The notes below the pieces were generated by a model, which was given only the letters and a program-made list of their open reading frames with translations, was not told the origin of the DNA and did no database searches. Below, in pieces: positions 12,307 to 64,000 of a stretch of 64,000 bases of DNA. Positions within the stretch are counted from its first letter, which is position 1; each line of letters starts with the position of its first letter. The stretch comes from Escherichia coli. GTDB lineage: Bacteria > Pseudomonadota > Gammaproteobacteria > Enterobacterales > Enterobacteriaceae. Made by a program: the position numbers and the translations under genes. The stretch lies in assembly GCF_013315695.1 (NCBI RefSeq), contig NZ_CP054353.1; one strand, 5' to 3'.

Positions 12307-13509
12307 TTACCTGAACTGATAATGACCTTCGCCCAATCGAATAACCCTTCCCTCTTCTTCTGCGCGGTTCAGCCACACACTAATTTGTTCGATGGTTAAA
12401 CCAGTACAAGACGCCAGCCTTTCAATACTTATCGATTCCTTTGCAAGGATCGCCAGTTCCGCCACAAAGAGTTGATAAAAATCGACAGGCGTATGCGCGG
12501 GCATTACTGCGTAATTTGCGTCATCTTCATGCAGCGAAAACAGTTCTGGTTGAACGTTACGGAGTGCTTTGTCATACATCAGCCCAGGAACGTCTGGCAG
12601 TCTGATCGTCACATTCTCAGCCTGTTCAGCACTCCATGACGCCCCATTTTCTACTAATCGTGAATTGGCTGATTGCACATCCTGATTTGGTTTAACCAGA
12701 ACAGGCAGCCACTGATGTTTTAACGCCTCCATCGCTCCGGTTATCGTTCCACCGGTCATTCCCGCACGTACAACCATTGCGCTTTCAGCAAGGCAATAAA
12801 TATATTTATTCCGCGCCATTGCATTGCCGACGGTGAAACGTACCTCTGGGTAAAACGGTGAAATCAACACCAGGTTGCCTGCTATAAGCCCTTCACGCCA
12901 TTTCACTAACGTACTCGTTTTTAACAAGCTATCAGCTAATACGCCAACGGCAGTTCCCCCGGCCTCCAGTGCCGACGCCATTGCACATTCATCAATACCT
13001 CGCGCACCACCAGAGATAACGCAAATCCCCTGTTGGGCCAGTTTCGCTGCCAGTTGTTGGGTATAGCGCAAATCGGCAGTCGGAGCATCTCGCGAGCCAA
13101 CAATCGCCATACCTTCCGCTTGCAGTAATGCTTTATTCCCGCAGCCAAATAAAACGGGAGGTGCATCCGTTCGCAATCGGTTTTTCAAGCGAACGGGATA
13201 ATCGGCATCTCCGCGGGTTAAGATCCATAAACCGGCGCGTTGCCACTTATCTACCGCCAACGCCAGACTATGACCACGCGCCAGCAAGCCAAGAATACGC
13301 TCCTGAGAAATACGCGGATCGCTCCAGCCTGTAAGTTTCTCTTGCGGTTGCGGCACCAGAAGATCGGCGGGACTGATACGTTGGTGCTTCAGCCATAATG
13401 CAAACTTCCCCCATTCACTATTACTAAGAGGTTTATACTCACTCGCCGCCGCGCGAGAAAAATCGCTGGTTAGCAGGAGAGTTGCTTGTGCATTGGCTGA
13501 AAGATTCAT
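12307..13509 (-). CDS. DprA/Smf-like protein; putative partner (PsyrA/RqlI-like) of the upstream helicase
   Basis: 400 aa from ATG at 13509..13507 (the ORF-track start at 13602 lies inside the upstream gene). Rossmann motif VISGGARGIDECAMASAL typical of DprA, and a C-terminal winged-helix-like tail. Start shares one base with the upstream stop (TGATG). Confidence 0.75.
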   Translation of the reverse strand: MNLSANAQATLLLTSDFSRAAASEYKPLSNSEWGKFALWLKHQRISPADLLVPQPQEKLTGWSDPRISQERILGLLARGHSLALAVDKWQRAGLWILTRGDADYPVRLKNRLRTDAPPVLFGCGNKALLQAEGMAIVGSRDAPTADLRYTQQLAAKLAQQGICVISGGARGIDECAMASALEAGGTAVGVLADSLLKTSTLVKWREGLIAGNLVLISPFYPEVRFTVGNAMARNKYIYCLAESAMVVRAGMTGGTITGAMEALKHQWLPVLVKPNQDVQSANSRLVENGASWSAEQAENVTIRLPDVPGLMYDKALRNVQPELFSLHEDDANYAVMPAHTPVDFYQLFVAELAILAKESISIERLASCTGLTIEQISVWLNRAEEEGRVIRLGEGHYQFR

Positions 13510-15605
13510 CAATTTTTTACCGAGGTAGAAGCAAGGGCAAGAGGATAAACCGTCGGGCAACCTGCCTGGCGTAACAGTGCTGTCAGAACTGTCAGCGTCC
13601 ATGCAGAATCCACGATATCATCAACCAGCAACGCCGGACCTGGCATCAAAGGAGGGGTAATCACAAACGCCCCGTCGAGATTTTGACACTGGTGAAAACG
13701 GTTTTGCTGCATTTTCTGCGGTGGATTGTCCACGACTTTTTCAATGGCATCAATAAAAGGTAAGCCAAGTTTCGCCGCCAGTCGCCGGGCAAAATCAGGA
13801 ACCAGGTCGAGGTGCCTTAATGAAGGAACGCAGCATACCCAGGTTGGTTCAGGATGCGGATTCCAGCGTTGGCGAACCATTTCCGCACATGCTTCTACCA
13901 GCTCATCACTTAAGCGCCCCGTTTTTTTCTCCTGTGCTACCTGCTTTCCCCACCCGGAATCTCCCCAACGAGAAAGGATTCGCCCCGTAGATCCTTGTAA
14001 ACCCGCAGGCAAGTTCCCTTTAAATCCGTATTGCGTAAAAGCCCCAGCTGCCACCTGTTTATTGAGATTTAACGGCAGGTCAGCGTGTTTAATAAATAAA
14101 TTTGCCGCATGGAGTAAGCCGCTATCAATGTCGGGCGACAATAACGGATGCTGAAGACAACTGCTACATTTACCACAACGTTCGGCACTTGGCTCATCGA
14201 GTGCACGGCGCAGAAATTGCATTTTGCACTCCTTGGTCGTGATATAGCTTTCAACGTCTGCCAGTTCACTTTTTCTCTGATTCATCAAATGGTTAATTCG
14301 TTCATGATCAGGAGAAAAACTGACGATAGTTCTGCGCCATAATTTCTCGGTATACACCACAGGCGATGGATTTTCCGCTACCAATAATTTCAGTGCTTTT
14401 TCTATTTGCCCATAACGAAGATTCGTCCGTTGTTCAATGCCTCGTAGGGTAAGACCGTCATTCTCGCTAAGTACGTTGAGTATTTCATGAATTTGCGCCT
14501 CCGCAGGAAAGGCGCTTTCACGGAAGAATTGATGAATAGCGCGGTCTTCACCACCACAAAGCAATATGCCAACTGCGGAATCTATAGCACGCCCGGCACG
14601 CCCCACCTGTTGGTAGTAACCGACAATAGACCCCGGCATCTGATAATGAATGACGAAACCTAAATCAGGTTTATCAAACCCCATACCTAATGCCGTCGTC
14701 GCGACCAGCACTTTGATTTTATTTGCCAGCAGTGCCTGCTCCAGATATTCCCTGGCAGTATTAGAATCTTCCGCGCCTTCACAAGTCACGCCGCTGTAGT
14801 AAGCAAATGCACTGATACCATTTTTCCTTAACCACTCGGCGACAAGTTCAGCATCGCGAGTCGTCAGGGTATAAACAATTCCCGATTTGGAAAACTGAGG
14901 GATAACCGTTGCTAACCATGCCAGACGGGATGACTGTTCTCCTAAGACTAAGGCATCAAGCGCCAAACTTTCGCGAGCCAGCGTTCCACGCTGAATCACA
15001 ATGTCACCCAATTGCTGACGGATATCCTCAACAACACGGTTATTCGCTGTCGCGGTTGTACCCAGAACAGGGGTATTCGCAGGCAGTTGGCGCAAAATAT
15101 CTAATATACGTCGGTAATCCGGGCGAAAATCGTGGCCCCAATCAGAGATGCAGTGCGCCTCGTCGACCACAAGCAAGCCAATACGATCGGCTATAGGATA
15201 TAAAACCGTTTCGATAAAGTCCTGGTTTGCCAAACGTTCCGGGGAAACCAGCAAGCAATCGACCTCACCTTGCAGCAACTTATCGCTAATGCGCTGCCAT
15301 TCTTCCCTGTTTGTAGAATTCAACGTTTCAGCCGTAATACCTAACCGTTCAGCGGCGGCAACCTGGTTACGCATCAGGGCAAGCAAAGGAGAGATGATAA
15401 TTGTCGGGCCAGCGCCGCGATCGCGGAAGATTTTACTGGCGATGAAGTACACGGCACTTTTCCCCCAGCCGGTGCGCTGTACAACCAGCAGTTTTCGCCG
15501 CTGATTAACCACTGCATCTATGGCTTCCCATTGCCCTTCCCTGAAAGTAGCGGTGGTATTTCCTAACATCCGCTGTAAAAGCAATTCAGCTCCGTGCTTT
15601 TCCAT
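13509..15605 (-). CDS. RecQ-like DEAH helicase fused to a C-terminal ComF-type PRTase-like domain (PsyrT/RqlH-like)
   Basis: 698 aa. Helicase motifs TGWGKS, VVDEAHCISDWGHDFRPDY, LGTTATA, ATTALGMGFDKPD, YYQQVGRAGRA; CGKCSSC zinc-like motif; C-terminal segment with LLVDDIVDSAWT resembling the PRPP-binding loop of type-I PRTases. Confidence 0.8.
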   Translation of the reverse strand: MEKHGAELLLQRMLGNTTATFREGQWEAIDAVVNQRRKLLVVQRTGWGKSAVYFIASKIFRDRGAGPTIIISPLLALMRNQVAAAERLGITAETLNSTNREEWQRISDKLLQGEVDCLLVSPERLANQDFIETVLYPIADRIGLLVVDEAHCISDWGHDFRPDYRRILDILRQLPANTPVLGTTATANNRVVEDIRQQLGDIVIQRGTLARESLALDALVLGEQSSRLAWLATVIPQFSKSGIVYTLTTRDAELVAEWLRKNGISAFAYYSGVTCEGAEDSNTAREYLEQALLANKIKVLVATTALGMGFDKPDLGFVIHYQMPGSIVGYYQQVGRAGRAIDSAVGILLCGGEDRAIHQFFRESAFPAEAQIHEILNVLSENDGLTLRGIEQRTNLRYGQIEKALKLLVAENPSPVVYTEKLWRRTIVSFSPDHERINHLMNQRKSELADVESYITTKECKMQFLRRALDEPSAERCGKCSSCLQHPLLSPDIDSGLLHAANLFIKHADLPLNLNKQVAAGAFTQYGFKGNLPAGLQGSTGRILSRWGDSGWGKQVAQEKKTGRLSDELVEACAEMVRQRWNPHPEPTWVCCVPSLRHLDLVPDFARRLAAKLGLPFIDAIEKVVDNPPQKMQQNRFHQCQNLDGAFVITPPLMPGPALLVDDIVDSAWTLTVLTALLRQAGCPTVYPLALASTSVKN

Positions 15606-19791: not shown

Positions 19792-20829
19792 TTACTTCGC
19801 GAGAGTCACTGTGGAGGGAGAGGCTTGCTCAAAACCGCGTTCAAGGATTTCCAAATTGGTAAGAACTTCAGATTCCTTGACGTAATTTGGCGCACCATTG
19901 GTGATGGTTTGGTACAACGCATCATAAACGCGCCCGTAATCGCCCATCTCTGGCTTCATCTCTTCTCTGACCGTCACGCCTTCGTCATTGACATACTCCA
20001 GCACACCGACCGAATCATCCGCTGCGAATCCTGGTTCGCCCGGCATAATATTAGCCTTCAGGCTGGTTTCCTGCTGGTCGATACCGTATTTAATAAACGA
20101 ACCTTTCTTACCGTGAACGATAAATTTCGGATAATCGATTTTCACCAGATGGCTGGTTTTGACGATGGCTTTTAGATCGCCATAAAACAGCTGCGCTTCA
20201 AAGGTGTCGTCCGGATTGGCTTTATTACGCAGGCTGCGGATGTCATAAGCGACGTGATCCGGGCGACCGAACAGAGAAATAATCTGGTCCATCGTATGCA
20301 CACCAAGGCCATAGAACGCGCCATCCTGCGGCAGCCCAGGTTTGGTTTCTGCCACCGGGCGGTAATAGTCAAAATGGCTTTCCACTTCAACAATCTCTCC
20401 CAGCTTACCGCTTTCAATCGCTTTTTTCGCCGTCAGGAAGCAGGAATCAAAGCGACGATTCTGATACGGCGTGACGGTCAGCCCTTTGCTTTTCGCCAAC
20501 GCAAACAGCGCCTTCGCCTGGGCAAGCGTCGGGGTGAACGGTTTTTCGACCAGCACATTTTTCCCGGCTTCCAGCGCGCGCTTCGCGTATTCGAAATGGC
20601 TATCCGCGTGGGTGCAGACGACAACCAGCTTAACATCGGGATCGTTTAGCACTTCGTCGAGATCGCTGGTGAAATGGATATGAGAGTAAATGGGAGCCTG
20701 TTCTTCCGGCTTCGCATGGCGGCGAAAAATATGCGCGACATGCCAGCTATCCTTGCGGTTAAGTACATACGGCAGATGGTAACGGGTGGTGCTTTTGCCG
20801 AAGCCAATAAAGGCGCAGTTGATGACCAT
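19792..20829 (-). CDS. yhhX: Gfo/Idh/MocA-family NAD(P)-dependent oxidoreductase
   Basis: 345-aa ORF; N-terminal Rossmann INCAFIGFGKSTTRYHLPY. Confidence 0.9.
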   Translation of the reverse strand: MVINCAFIGFGKSTTRYHLPYVLNRKDSWHVAHIFRRHAKPEEQAPIYSHIHFTSDLDEVLNDPDVKLVVVCTHADSHFEYAKRALEAGKNVLVEKPFTPTLAQAKALFALAKSKGLTVTPYQNRRFDSCFLTAKKAIESGKLGEIVEVESHFDYYRPVAETKPGLPQDGAFYGLGVHTMDQIISLFGRPDHVAYDIRSLRNKANPDDTFEAQLFYGDLKAIVKTSHLVKIDYPKFIVHGKKGSFIKYGIDQQETSLKANIMPGEPGFAADDSVGVLEYVNDEGVTVREEMKPEMGDYGRVYDALYQTITNGAPNYVKESEVLTNLEILERGFEQASPSTVTLAK

Positions 20830-20950
20830 GATTTCGTCCTTATTAAGGTGGTTATTTACACCTTAGCGCAAAGCGGATGTGGTTCCTACTGGAGTGCGCA
20901 TAACGAACACAAGCACTCTCGTGGATAAATTGAGAACGAAAGATCAAAAA

Positions 20951-21040
20951 AAAAGCCAGCACCCGGCTGGCTAAGTAATACTGGAAGCAATGTGAGCAAT
21001 GTCGTGCTTTCAGGTTCTCCGCGAGGGTCTTCCTGATCGC
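20951..21040 (-). ncRNA. ryhB: RyhB small RNA (Fur-repressed, Hfq-dependent)
   Basis: Reverse complement of 20951..21040 reads GCGATCAGGAAGACCCTCGCGGAGAACCTGAAAGCACGACATTGCTCACATTGCTTCCAGTATTACTTAGCCAGCCGGGTGCTGGCTTTT, the RyhB sequence as I know it, ending in a GCCAGC/GCTGGC terminator hairpin and U-tract. ORF-track entries 20852..21100 and 21010..21225 across it are spurious. Confidence 0.9.
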
Positions 21041-21042
21041 GA

Positions 21043-21065
21043 GACAATAATAATCATTCTCATTC
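21043..21065 (-). promoter_or_regulatory. Fur box overlapping the ryhB promoter
   Basis: Minus strand just upstream of the RyhB 5' end reads GAATGAGAATGATTATTATTGTC, a GATAAT/ATTATC-type Fur-box array. Confidence 0.6.
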
Positions 21066-21162
21066 GCACTTGTCCAACACTTTTTGCAAAAAAAATGCAT
21101 TTGACTCGCATTTGAAAGTCAATGATGTTGAAAGGGACATTTACCCCAAAGAGGACAAAGGA

Positions 21163-21651
21163 ATGAGTGAGATAGTAATACGCCATGCTGAAACGCGGGA
21201 CTACGAGGCCATCAGGCAGATTCACGCCCAGCCGGAGGTGTATTGCAACACACTACAGGTGCCTCATCCTTCCGATTATATGTGGCAGGAGCGACTCGCC
21301 GATCGTCCCGGCATCAAGCAACTTGTCGCCTGTATTGATAGAGACGTCGTGGGCCATCTCACTATTGACGTGCAACAACGCCCACGCCGCAGTCATGTTG
21401 CCGATTTTGGTATCTGTGTCGACTCTCGCTGGAAGAACCGCGGCGTCGCCAGCGCCCTGATGCGCGAAATGATTGATATGTGCGACAACTGGTTGCGGGT
21501 AGATCGTATCGAGCTAACGGTGTTCGTCGATAACGCGCCAGCAATTAAGGTCTATAAAAAATTCGGCTTTAAGATTGAAGGGACTGGCAAAAAGTACGCA
21601 TTACGTAATGGTGAATATGTCGATGCGTATTATATGGCGCGGGTGAAGTAA
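21163..21651 (+). CDS. yhhY: GNAT-family N-acetyltransferase
   Basis: ORF track starts at TTG 21070; ATG at 21163 with AAGGA RBS gives the 162-aa protein MSEIVIRHAETRDYEAIRQIH... Confidence 0.9.
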   Translation: MSEIVIRHAETRDYEAIRQIHAQPEVYCNTLQVPHPSDYMWQERLADRPGIKQLVACIDRDVVGHLTIDVQQRPRRSHVADFGICVDSRWKNRGVASALMREMIDMCDNWLRVDRIELTVFVDNAPAIKVYKKFGFKIEGTGKKYALRNGEYVDAYYMARVK

Positions 21652-31922: not shown

Positions 31923-32669
31923 TCATTGCACCACACTCTGCTTCAGCCGTTCATTGGCGGTCTTAATCCATTCCCGGTGGTGTTTTCTATAATGTGGTTT
32001 TGAACGTTTAGCCGTATCAACCACAGCAATATACTGCTCGTTGGCTTCACGTAACCGACTCATTTTCGCCAACATTTCCGCATAGTAAATACGTGCCTGC
32101 GGGCCGGGGTAATAAGAAACAAGCACCTCAAACTCACTTTCCGCATCAGCGTATTTTTCTTGTGCGGCTAACGCTCTGGCAAATAACAAATGCCCGTCTG
32201 CCGACTGAAAATCGGGGTTATAACGCATCACATCTTCCAGCGTCTGCTGACAGGCGGCGAACTCCTGAATAGCAAATTGCACCTGCGCCAGGCTTAACAT
32301 CATTACCGCTTCATGGGCGAAAATTCCGCTTAACGCCTGCTGATAATGGGGAACGGCTTCGTGATAACGCCCAAGGCGCGCCAGTTCGTTAGCTAACGCA
32401 TAATGGTTTTGATTAGTCTCGGCAATCGCCAGCTCTTCGGTTAATTTGTGCAGGTGGCGTTCCGGGCTGATTTTGTCCTGCAGGCGCATCAGCAAAGTAC
32501 GCCCGTGACGGTCAGCGCCCGTTTCAGGCAGCATGACCATGACGAAATACGCCACGCAGCCAATCACCGGAAAACAGAAGATAATAAAAATCCAGTATCG
32601 CTCTTGTCCGGAGCGATAAGCGTGAATACAGCAAAGCAGTTCAAGCATGACGACAACGGCATAATGCAT
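31923..32669 (-). CDS. Hypothetical membrane-anchored protein: PLDc_N-like two-helix N-terminus plus TPR-like repeat domain
   Basis: 248 aa. N-terminus HAYRSGQERYWIFIIFCFPVIGCVAYFVMVMLPE resembles the PLD-superfamily N-terminal membrane domain (compare cardiolipin synthase N-terminus); the rest is helical-repeat-like. I do not recall a gene between ugpB and livF in K-12. Confidence 0.7.
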   Translation of the reverse strand: MHYAVVVMLELLCCIHAYRSGQERYWIFIIFCFPVIGCVAYFVMVMLPETGADRHGRTLLMRLQDKISPERHLHKLTEELAIAETNQNHYALANELARLGRYHEAVPHYQQALSGIFAHEAVMMLSLAQVQFAIQEFAACQQTLEDVMRYNPDFQSADGHLLFARALAAQEKYADAESEFEVLVSYYPGPQARIYYAEMLAKMSRLREANEQYIAVVDTAKRSKPHYRKHHREWIKTANERLKQSVVQ

Positions 32670-60047: not shown

Positions 60048-60521
60048 ATGCAAGGCATACAGTTTCAGGAAAATTATATTCAACGACTTCCGGCAGGGTT
60101 AAGCGTTGAACAGATCATCCGTCAGTTAGCGCAACCGTTGGTTGCTGCTGAGCTGGTGGTCCCTGATTTTGCCAATCACGTACTGAAACGTGAGGCGACG
60201 TACCCAACGGGGCTGCCTACCGAACCACCGTGCGTCGCCATTCCGCACACGGACCATAAACATGTCCGGCACAATGCAATTGCCGTCGGTATTTTGCCAG
60301 AGCCGGTAGAGTTTGCCGATATGGGCGGCGACCCTGATCCCGTACCTGTCAGGGTGATTTTTTTGCTCGCCTTAAGTGAAAGTAATAAACAATTAAATGC
60401 CCTGGGCTGGATTATGGAGATGATTCAGGATACGCCCTTTATGCGCGCCCTGCTTACGATGGAAACAACAGAAATACACACAGTAATCTTAAACAAAATG
60501 AATGAACGAGGTGAAATATGA
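60048..60521 (+). CDS. PTS EIIA component, galactitol-type (EIIA-2 fold)
   Basis: ATG at 60048 with GAGGA RBS; phospho-His region CVAIPHTDHKHV; overall similar to GatA-type EIIA. Confidence 0.8.
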   Translation: MQGIQFQENYIQRLPAGLSVEQIIRQLAQPLVAAELVVPDFANHVLKREATYPTGLPTEPPCVAIPHTDHKHVRHNAIAVGILPEPVEFADMGGDPDPVPVRVIFLLALSESNKQLNALGWIMEMIQDTPFMRALLTMETTEIHTVILNKMNERGEI

Positions 60522-60799
60522 GTCAAACCATTTTATTTGTCTGCGCCACAGGTATTGCCACATCCACGGCGGTAACAGAAAAAGTCATGGAGTATTGCAA
60601 AGAGCACGGCCTTAACGTCAATTATTCCCAAACCAACGTTGCCTCTTTACCCGGTAATACCGACGGCGTAGCGCTGGTTGTTTCAACGACTAAAGTGCCT
60701 TATGAACTCGACGTCCCGGTAGTTAACGGCTTGCCGATTATTACCGGTATTGGCGAAGAGAAAGTACTGGCGCAAATTGTTTCGATTCTTAAAAAGTAA
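60518..60799 (+). CDS. PTS EIIB component, galactitol-type
   Basis: 93-aa ORF with phospho-Cys motif ILFVCATGIATS near the N-terminus; ATGA overlap with the EIIA gene. Confidence 0.8.
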   Translation: MSQTILFVCATGIATSTAVTEKVMEYCKEHGLNVNYSQTNVASLPGNTDGVALVVSTTKVPYELDVPVVNGLPIITGIGEEKVLAQIVSILKK

Positions 60800-60872
60800 T
60801 TAATAATTAATTCCAACCCACTCCATCAGGCGCTAACGCGAGGTGCGCTCTCGCCTGAAAAAGAGGTTTATT

Positions 60873-62231
60873 ATGAACGATATCGCGCATACCCTCTATA
60901 ATATTGTGCAATATATATTGGGATTTGGCCCCACGGTAATGTTGCCGTTGGTGTTATTTATTCTTGCTCTCTGTTTTAAAGTAAAACCCGCTAAAGCCTT
61001 ACGCTCGTCATTAACAGTCGGCATTGGTTTTGTCGGTATTTATGCCATTTTCGATATTCTTACCAGCAATGTCGGGCCAGCGGCCCAGGCGATGGTTGAA
61101 CGCACCGGAATTAATTTACCGGTGGTGGATTTAGGCTGGCCGCCGCTTTCCGCTATTACATGGGGTTCGCCAATTGCCCCGTTTGTTATTCCCCTGACCA
61201 TTCTGATTAATGTCGCAATGCTGGCGTTAAATAAAACCCGCACCGTTGATGTAGATATGTGGAACTACTGGCATTTTGCCCTTGCCGGTACGCTGGTTTA
61301 TTACAGCACCGGCAGCCTATTCTTTGGTTTGCTGGCGGCCGCGATTGCCGCAGTGGTGGTGCTAAAACTCGCCGACTGGTCTGCGCCACTGGTACAAAAA
61401 TACTTTGGCCTGGAAGGGATCTCATTGCCGACGCTCTCTTCGGTGGTGTTCTTCCCGGTCGGTCTGCTGGTCGACAAAATCATCGACCATATCCCTGGCC
61501 TCAATCGTATTCATATCGACCCGGAAACCGTACAGAAAAAGTTTGGCATCTTCGGCGAACCGATGATGGTTGGCACTATTCTGGGCATTCTGCTCGGCGT
61601 AATTGCCGGATACGATTTCAAAAAAGTCTTGCTGCTTGGCATCAGCATTGGCGGTGTGATGTTCATCCTGCCACGCATGGTTCGCATCCTGATGGAAGGT
61701 TTATTACCGCTGTCTGAAGCCATTAAAAAGTATCTCAATGCCAAATACCCTGACCGTGACGATCTCTATATAGGACTGGATATCGCCGTTGCCGTAGGTA
61801 ACCCGGCGATTATCTCCACCGCCCTGCTGCTGACGCCAATCTCGGTCTTTATCGCGTTTGTCCTCCCAGGTAATGAAGTCCTGCCGCTTGGCGACCTTGC
61901 CAACCTGGCGGTAATGGCGTCGATGATTGCTTTAGCCAGCCGTGGCAATATTTTCCGCACCGTTCTGGCGGCGATCCCGGTGATTATTGCCGACCTGTGG
62001 ATTGCCACTAAAATCGCGCCGTTTATTACCGGAATGGCGAAAGACGTTAACTTCAAATTTGCCGAAGGCTCCAGCGGCCAGGTTTCCAGTTTCCTTGATG
62101 GCGGTAACCCGTTCCGCTTCTGGCTGCTGGAAATCTTCAACGGCAATCTCATCGCCATTGGTCTGGTGCCGGTTATCGCCCTGATACTGTATGGCATTTT
62201 CCGAATGACGCGGAGCACGGTTTATGCCTGA
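60873..62231 (+). CDS. PTS EIIC permease, galactitol (Gat) family
   Basis: ATG at 60873 with AGAGG RBS (ORF track starts at GTG 60843); conserved blocks GPTVMLP, GIGFVGI, VDLGWPP, GEP, GNIFRT shared with GatC-type EIIC. Confidence 0.8.
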   Translation: MNDIAHTLYNIVQYILGFGPTVMLPLVLFILALCFKVKPAKALRSSLTVGIGFVGIYAIFDILTSNVGPAAQAMVERTGINLPVVDLGWPPLSAITWGSPIAPFVIPLTILINVAMLALNKTRTVDVDMWNYWHFALAGTLVYYSTGSLFFGLLAAAIAAVVVLKLADWSAPLVQKYFGLEGISLPTLSSVVFFPVGLLVDKIIDHIPGLNRIHIDPETVQKKFGIFGEPMMVGTILGILLGVIAGYDFKKVLLLGISIGGVMFILPRMVRILMEGLLPLSEAIKKYLNAKYPDRDDLYIGLDIAVAVGNPAIISTALLLTPISVFIAFVLPGNEVLPLGDLANLAVMASMIALASRGNIFRTVLAAIPVIIADLWIATKIAPFITGMAKDVNFKFAEGSSGQVSSFLDGGNPFRFWLLEIFNGNLIAIGLVPVIALILYGIFRMTRSTVYA

Positions 62232-63732
62232 TAACAGCGCAGCTATCGTTATCGATATTGGCACCACCAATTGCAAAGTCACCTGCTTTTCCTGCCTGGA
62301 TGCAACGACGTTGGGCGCGCATAAATTCGTGACGGCAAAACAGATCTCCCCACAGGGCGATGTCGATTTCGATATCGACGTCCTCTGGCAGGAGGTCCGC
62401 CAGGCAATAGCGCAACTGAGCGCCGCTTCGCCGCTGCCGGTCAGGCGGATAAGCATTGCCAGTTTTGGCGAGTCAGGGGTGTTTCTTGACGAGCATGGCG
62501 AGATCCTGACGCCAATGCTGGCATGGTATGACCGCCGCGGTGAAGAGTACCTGGCAACGCTTAGTGAGGCAGACAGTGCGGCGCTTTATGACATCTGCGG
62601 GCTACCGCTGCACAGCAATTACTCTGCCTTCAAAATGCGTTGGTTGCTGGAGCATTATCCACTGCGTAATCGCCGCGGCCTGCGTTGGCTACATGCGCCG
62701 GAAGTACTGCTCTGGCGGCTGACTGGCGAACAGCGTACGGATATCACCTTAGCCAGCCGTACGCTGTGTCTGGACGTGCGTAAAGGCGAATGGTCAGCGA
62801 AAGCGGCGGCGTTGTTACACGTTCCCTGTTCAGCATTTGCGCCATTGGTGCAGCCAGGCGAGCACGCCGGATGGGTCAGCGAGTCGCTCTGCAAAACGCT
62901 TGGGTTCTTGCAACCGGTCAGCGTGACGCTGGCCGGGCATGACCATATGGTGGGTGCGCGGGCGTTGCAGATGACGCCGGGCGATATCCTTAACTCGACG
63001 GGCACCACAGAAGGCATTCTGCAACTGGATACACAACCGACGCTGGATGAACAGGCCAAACGTGACAAGCTGGCAAACGGCTGTTATTCGCTTGCAAACC
63101 AGTTCACCCTGTTTGCGTCGCTGCCGGTGGGCGGTTTCGCTCTGGAGTGGCTGCGCAACACGTTCCGGCTAACCGATGAGGAGATCGCCGCATCACTTAC
63201 TCGCGGACATGCGGATTACCTGGCGGGGAACTGGTCGCTCGATGACATTCCCGTTTTTATTCCGCATCTTCGCGGTTCGGGTTCGCCCTATAAAAATCGC
63301 CATACCCGAGGATTATTTTATGGGCTTGGCGATACGTTAAATATCGATATGTTAATTGCCAGCGTCTCACTGGGATTAACCATGGAATTTGCCAACTGCT
63401 TCGCCTGTTTTAATGTGCCCGGCACCAGCGCGTTAAAAGTGATAGGTCCGGCAACCCATAATCCCCTTTGGCTGCAATTAAAGGCGGATATTTTACAGCG
63501 TCCGGTTGAAGCAATTGCATTTAACGAGGCGGTTTCTGTCGGAGCATTATTAACCGCCGCACCGGATATTCCACCGCCGCAAGTCACCATAGCCCAACGT
63601 TTGTTACCGAATCGGGCGAGATACCATCAATTACAGCGTTATCAGCACAAATGGAAAAGCTGGTATCAGTTGAAATTACAGCAAGAAGGCGTGATGCCAT
63701 TACATCATCGGGAGGAGCACTATGTTGAGTAA
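62224..63732 (+). CDS. FGGY-family carbohydrate kinase (rhamnulokinase/fuculokinase-like)
   Basis: 502-aa ORF; N-terminal phosphate-binding loop AIVIDIGTTNCKV and the FGGY second motif region AGHDHMVGA; overlaps the EIIC stop by 8 nt. Confidence 0.75.
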   Translation: MPDNSAAIVIDIGTTNCKVTCFSCLDATTLGAHKFVTAKQISPQGDVDFDIDVLWQEVRQAIAQLSAASPLPVRRISIASFGESGVFLDEHGEILTPMLAWYDRRGEEYLATLSEADSAALYDICGLPLHSNYSAFKMRWLLEHYPLRNRRGLRWLHAPEVLLWRLTGEQRTDITLASRTLCLDVRKGEWSAKAAALLHVPCSAFAPLVQPGEHAGWVSESLCKTLGFLQPVSVTLAGHDHMVGARALQMTPGDILNSTGTTEGILQLDTQPTLDEQAKRDKLANGCYSLANQFTLFASLPVGGFALEWLRNTFRLTDEEIAASLTRGHADYLAGNWSLDDIPVFIPHLRGSGSPYKNRHTRGLFYGLGDTLNIDMLIASVSLGLTMEFANCFACFNVPGTSALKVIGPATHNPLWLQLKADILQRPVEAIAFNEAVSVGALLTAAPDIPPPQVTIAQRLLPNRARYHQLQRYQHKWKSWYQLKLQQEGVMPLHHREEHYVE

Positions 63733-63991
63733 AACCGTGGAGGTCAGAAACAGTACTGGCCTGCATGCACGTCCGGCGGCCTGTCTGGCGAAAGCCGCCA
63801 AAAAATATAGCTGTAAAGTGACGCTGCATTATGAAGGTAATGATATTAATGCCACCAGCATGATGAATATTATGCGCGCCGGAATAAAAGGCGGAAAAAC
63901 GGTGGAAATACGCTGCGAAGGTGATGATGAAAACGAGGCAATACAAACTCTCACTACCTTATTTCGCGACCGCTTCGGTGAAGCTGAATAA
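63722..63991 (+). CDS. HPr-like phosphocarrier protein
   Basis: 89-aa ORF with the HPr active-site context NSTGLHARPAA (phospho-His); overlaps the kinase 3' end by 11 nt. Confidence 0.75.
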   Translation: MLSKTVEVRNSTGLHARPAACLAKAAKKYSCKVTLHYEGNDINATSMMNIMRAGIKGGKTVEIRCEGDDENEAIQTLTTLFRDRFGEAE

Positions 63992-64000
63992 TTAACTGAT

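Follow-up and report, generated by a model that had tools for sequence, protein, structure and literature searches.

Among the small RNAs that couple bacterial gene expression to iron supply, RyhB of Escherichia coli K-12 is the closest described relative of the element analysed here. Its induction by iron limitation, repression by Fur, dependence on Hfq and down-regulation of sodB and sdh are experimentally established for K-12, whose ryhB sequence is identical to the present one (PMC2189734, PMC4666370, PMC4509938). About 50 targets are known, and two genes, shiA and cirA, are activated (PMC4666370; PMC4509938). The K-12 gene carries four overlapping Fur sites in a 31-bp cluster; a gel shift confirmed the strongest of them, a 25.2-bit site with its centre at −15 (Chen et al. 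2007, PMC2189734). Its terminator hairpin has a reported ΔG of −10.7 and is followed by a polyU tail of 9 (Morita 2015, PMC4509938). During normal growth about 20% of polymerases read through this terminator, yielding extended products that have lost Hfq binding (PMC4509938). In RyhB and its siblings, conservation and target pairing lie mostly at nt 37–69 (PMC4211561), and C28–U68 is the segment used for hybrid prediction (PMC4666370).

Other bacteria employ the same logic with different molecules. PrrF1/2 of Pseudomonas, FsrA of Bacillus and IsrR of Staphylococcus are likewise Fur-repressed small RNAs that lower the synthesis of iron-containing proteins (PMC4211561 and another paper). They are unrelated to RyhB in sequence and fall outside the Rfam family RF00057, and are thus analogs only.

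Identity and anatomy of the ryhB locus

The window, a stretch of 64,000 nucleotides of E. coli DNA, contains a ryhB gene on the minus strand at 20946..21040. Its transcription start site is G21040, and a T-run that finishes at 20946 contains its 3' end. Read along the minus strand, a −35/−10 pair is followed by GCGATCAGGAAGACCC..., then by a G+C-rich hairpin and a run of nine T. The initial annotation had placed a full RyhB sequence on the minus strand of the yhhX–yhhY intergenic region, and two lines of evidence bear this out. A scan of the whole 64-kb window with the Rfam 15 covariance models at gathering thresholds gave an RF00057 RyhB match at 21011..20947 (−) with 83.1 bits and an E-value of 3.6e-14, well over the family's gathering score of 55. 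The match is untruncated, spanning model positions 1–67 of 67, and is the sole Rfam match in the entire 64 kb. Aligned with K-12 ryhB (b4451; NC_000913.3 3580922-3581016, minus strand), window positions 21040..20946 (−) are the same at 95/95 bases. The K-12 MG1655 record likewise places the ncRNA ryhB between yhhX and yhhY.

Identity to K-12 extends beyond the RNA. The yhhX–yhhY intergenic region as a whole is 98% identical, and the −35 hexamer, spacer, −10 hexamer, Fur box cluster and terminator carry no change; the flanking yhhX and yhhY are the same genes. The region differs from K-12 only in a homopolymer of T8 instead of T7, about 50 nt upstream of the start site, and in three single-nucleotide polymorphisms (SNPs) past the terminator, within the yhhX leader. 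The T8 run (21088..21095, minus strand; about −48 to −55 of ryhB) is the sole difference upstream of the gene; both K-12 and Escherichia albertii have T7 at this place. Immediately ahead of the −35 hexamer, it forms part of a short A/T palindrome, TTTTTGCAAAAA. From this comparison, no functional difference between the window copy and K-12 RyhB is expected.

The ryhB promoter is of the sigma-70 type and occupies 21047..21076 on the minus strand. It consists of a −35 hexamer TGGACA (21076..21071), an 18-nt spacer and a −10 hexamer TATTAT (21052..21047), which finishes 7 nt ahead of the 5' end annotated in K-12 (21040). In a consensus scan it scored 10/12 and was the sole promoter-like site within 20700-21300. 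A Fur box cluster at 21043..21067 overlaps its −10 hexamer and spacer. The better 19-mer matches the Fur consensus GATAATGATAATCATTATC at 16/19 positions (3 mismatches) and lies at 21043-21061, that is, at −3 to −21. It is unique in the 64 kb, and 100 shuffles yielded 0 sites at this level. The second 19-mer, matching at 14/19, lies at 21049-21067 (−9 to −27) and overlaps the first with an offset of 6 nt, so that the two boxes jointly span −3 to −27, including the −10 hexamer.

The upstream Fur-box array that had been proposed for this region is therefore present as two overlapping 19-mers, and the word "array" is fair because four overlapping sites have been published on the same K-12 sequence (PMC2189734). 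The interval originally given for the locus, 20946-21065, includes the main Fur box as well as the RNA, but stops 2 nt short of the end of the second box and excludes the −35 hexamer (21071-21076).

The published K-12 work suggests how this copy would operate. Under sufficient iron, Fe2+-Fur would occupy the overlapping boxes between −3 and −27 and block RNA polymerase, because the boxes cover the −10 hexamer and the spacer. When iron is scarce, Fur would depart and an RNA of about 90–95 nt would be made, from G21040 to the T-run at 20946-20954. Hfq would then bind the terminator hairpin, the 3' poly-U tail and the U-rich stretch preceding it, and the conserved single-stranded core would pair with sodB, sdhCDAB and other mRNAs whose iron-using products are non-essential. 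This is predicted to block translation and to lead to RNase E-dependent decay, together constituting the "iron-sparing" response, while some transcripts would probably run past the terminator into yhhX. For Fur binding, iron regulation, Hfq dependence and the target set, we infer the behaviour of this copy from experiments on the identical K-12 sequence, and its description as the Fur-repressed iron-sparing small RNA agrees with that literature. Sequence identity, covariance-model membership, the anatomy of promoter, Fur box and terminator, synteny and conservation were demonstrated here directly. The sequence, place and regulation of this locus are all already known: it is a textbook element, and nothing about it is biologically new.

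Reading frames that overlap ryhB

Three open reading frames (ORFs) on the minus strand are listed across the locus. An 82-aa ORF (20852..21100) crosses the ryhB promoter, the RNA, the terminator and the yhhX leader. A 71-aa ORF (21010..21225) runs antisense to the 5' end of yhhY and stops 31 nt into RyhB. A 53-aa ORF with a TTG start (20886..21047) passes through RyhB. The first two had been named in the initial annotation as spurious frames that the ORF track proposes over RyhB, and both are indeed in the mechanical list; the third was absent from it.

Could one of these frames be a real small-protein gene, or could RyhB be a dual-function RNA with an encoded peptide? The frames do exist in the ORF list, dual-function small RNAs are known generally (e.g. 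SR1/SR1P), and the 53-aa frame has been deposited as a "hypothetical protein". Its sequence, however, returned only a handful of such entries, from E. coli and Shigella, in a collection of about 15 billion proteins, in which the exact 82- and 71-aa sequences were not found at all. Scans of the three ORFs against Pfam and NCBIfam gave no family above cut-off. No coding sequence is annotated over ryhB in the K-12 and IAI39 records, and no RyhB-encoded protein came up in a literature search.

The geometry of the locus also argues against a protein product. All three ORFs start upstream of the RyhB start site, and the 82- and 71-aa starts lie upstream of the promoter as well. Beginning before its first nucleotide, none of them can be encoded by the small RNA transcript. 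The 53-aa ORF cannot be translated from the RyhB transcript because its start lies 7 nt upstream of the start site. The RyhB RNA itself has no AUG in its sequence.

Comparison between genomes points the same way. The frames are not conserved across 104 loci among the matches listed: which of them is open over the core varies arbitrarily, and the median ORF length there is 30 aa in one frame, 24 aa in another and 0 aa in the third. The T8/T7 polymorphism falls directly after the ATG of the 82-aa ORF, and the same ATG in K-12 opens a 29-aa product. With this 1-nt difference in the T-run, the K-12 frames recombine into ORFs of 95, 54 and 29 aa with their termini swapped, the counterpart of the 71-aa ORF being 54 aa long with a different C-terminus. 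The polymorphism thus exchanges frames among strains of a single species, and E. albertii lacks the start codon, ATG, of the 82-aa ORF. The reading as a small-protein gene or peptide-encoding RNA is already largely refuted and is very improbable. The judgement that the frames are spurious holds on the absence of a family, the lack of frame conservation, the T7/T8 scrambling and the absence of a coding sequence in the two records. The element in the window is almost certainly an intact, orthologous E. coli ryhB gene, with the overlapping 82-, 71- and 53-aa ORFs as chance frames, and no observation made here speaks against this.

These frames have a practical consequence for annotation. ORF-based tracks are blind to ryhB and show three misleading frames in its place, one of which, the 53-aa frame, has entered public protein databases. 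The IAI39 RefSeq record (NC_011750.1 4080251-4083591) lacks a ryhB feature despite 100% identity to the window over 20830-21170. That the gene was recognised from raw sequence together with its operator and terminator serves as a positive control, and its value here is that of an annotation note.

Conservation, paralogs and RNA structure

The locus is nearly universal in the species. A megablast search with window positions 20830-21170 found it in 5424/5426 complete E. coli genomes, on the chromosome every time. This 341-bp haplotype is shared at 100% identity by at least ten further complete genomes, among them IAI39 and CE10. Beyond the species, the most stable part is a 22-nt core, ACATTGCTCACATTGCTTCCAG, at 20981..21002 (minus strand), which corresponds to RyhB nt 39–60 and forms part of the target-pairing region. 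Its exact sequence occurs in at least 120 stretches of other species' genomes, from the Enterobacterales, Vibrionales and Aeromonadales. In an alignment of 23 sequences the core columns are invariant and the 5' third of the RNA is variable, in agreement with the published conservation at nt 37–69 (PMC4211561). A Fur-like box of at least 14/19 stands upstream of the core in 102/117 scorable copies among the matches listed. Among those matches, about 100 loci drawn from three orders carry the core together with a Fur box and a terminator, and two copies of the core per genome were often seen.

Such second copies raise the question of which paralog the window holds. Salmonella RfrA/RfrB (IsrE) and Yersinia RyhB1/RyhB2 share with the window copy the invariant core, the upstream Fur box and the terminator with its poly-U tail. 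The second paralogs, of the RfrB/RyhB2 type, differ from it: they lie at distal loci without yhhX or yhhY, their 5' half reads ACCGAATAGTTGAG..., and their terminator stem is GCCCGC. By these features the window copy classes as a RyhB1/RfrA-type ortholog.

A different possibility is that the window holds a silent or decaying allele, for instance one whose promoter is weakened by the T8 run, or a paralog of the RyhB2/RfrB type. Relative to K-12, the sequence ahead of the −35 hexamer does carry one 1-nt indel, and second RyhB paralogs occur in many Enterobacterales. Against decay, everything from the −35 hexamer through the spacer, −10 hexamer, Fur box and RNA to the terminator is identical to K-12, and the T8-bearing 341-bp haplotype recurs unchanged in the complete genomes mentioned above. 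Against a paralog, the yhhX/yhhY synteny marks an ortholog, the paralog type has another 5' half and the GCCCGC stem, and the window yields a single Rfam RyhB match. A silent allele or a second-type paralog thus has next to no probability, and the intact orthologous ryhB gene is the reading retained below.

The Rho-independent terminator, which would also serve as the Hfq-binding module, was located by a terminator scan and a minimum free energy (MFE) fold at 20946..20972 (minus strand). Its hairpin, AGCCAGC-CGGGT-GCTGGCT, lies at 20972..20954, with a 7-bp stem containing 5 G-C pairs, and is followed by a run of 9 T (20954..20946). The single-sequence MFE of the 95-nt RNA is −24.1 kcal/mol, no more stable than that of shuffled sequences (z = −0.67), so that this fold does not bear on the assignment. 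RNAalifold on a MAFFT alignment of 23 close orthologs gave 2 compensatory pairs and an implausible 3' helix; covariation is scarce there because the rows are too alike and the terminator is mis-registered in three of them.

To assess covariation of the terminator, the 3' tails were instead folded one by one for 80 distinct copies whose 3' end resembles that of E. coli. Among these copies, drawn from the matches listed, the hairpin is kept through 24 different stem sequences and abuts the T-run in nearly all. The variants include GCCAGC/GCTGGC, GCCCGC/GCGGGC, GCCGGC/GCCGGC, GCCCAC/GTGGGC and GCCAAC/GTTGGC. Judged from these paired changes, the stem covaries as expected of a structured RNA.

Gene neighbourhood and the wider window

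RyhB lies between the two genes that had been named as its neighbours, and both ORFs and annotation agree on them. The oxidoreductase gene yhhX (19792..20829, minus strand) is on the same strand, 116 nt downstream of the RyhB 3' end. The N-acetyltransferase gene yhhY (21163..21651, plus strand) is transcribed divergently, its ATG and the RyhB +1 being separated by 122 bp.

The connection to yhhX has been considered before. Co-transcription of yhhX with ryhB has been proposed in two papers, and yhhX mRNA rises in low iron in dependence on the ryhB promoter region (PMC4509938 and a second paper). A consensus scan of the intergenic region found no promoter for yhhX or yhhY besides that of ryhB, a weak negative. 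The lack of a promoter-like site between the terminator and yhhX is consistent with readthrough into yhhX and weakly supports it; yhhX probably receives readthrough from the ryhB promoter. The yhhX leader (20829-20946, minus strand) also holds a weak second terminator-like hairpin at 20923..20908.

The spacing to yhhY is the more constant of the two. Among the loci fetched, the distance from the yhhY ATG to the RyhB core is 157–186 nt, near-constant and divergent, in 30 loci that range from Escherichia to Yersinia, Pantoea, Serratia and Erwinia. By comparison, yhhX lies downstream of ryhB in only 16 of the loci fetched, at distances of 75–1465 nt. The near-constant ryhB–yhhY spacing suggests a shared, constrained control region. 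Taken with a possible regulated readthrough of the terminator, by which the Fur-controlled ryhB promoter may also drive yhhX, this near-fixed spacing allows the tentative and rather doubtful proposal that the ryhB locus is no stand-alone small RNA gene but the hub of a small conserved iron-responsive module. A linkage of ryhB to yhhX and yhhY is already a subject of the literature.

At larger scale the window runs collinear with positions 4060922-4124921 of E. coli IAI39. The two are near-identical around ryhB, but an identity of 98.2% over the whole window marks them as different strains; past about 26 kb, small indels shift the positions relative to IAI39. The genes follow one another as glgPACXB-asd-yhgN-(psyrAT)-gntUKR-yhhW-yhhX-ryhB-yhhY-yhhZ-yrhA-...-ggt-ugp-liv-rpoH-ftsYEX-...-nik.

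Several other features of the window deserve mention. Between ugpB and livF, at 31923-32669 (minus strand), a 248-aa ORF carries TPR repeats (Pfam TPR_19, E 1.8e-09); it is a "hypothetical protein" in IAI39 and had no match among the defence-system models. Between yhgN and gntU, at 12307-15605 (minus strand), a DprA-like gene (431 aa) overlaps a RecQ-like helicase gene (698 aa), and the pair matches the PsyrA/PsyrT defence (toxin-antitoxin) models near end to end, with E-values of 5.8e-201 and 0. The pair is presumably missing from the K-12 gene order and has the look of an insertion that varies among strains. A PstS-family gene adjoins glgP at the window's left edge (1-606), and at about 60100-64000, after nikR, there follow a GntR-type regulator, PTS IIA/IIB/IIC, an FGGY kinase and an HPr-like protein, as named from the IAI39 annotation. 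Both this gene and the post-nikR cluster, which we take to be out of keeping with the K-12 gene order, are probably strain-variable islands.
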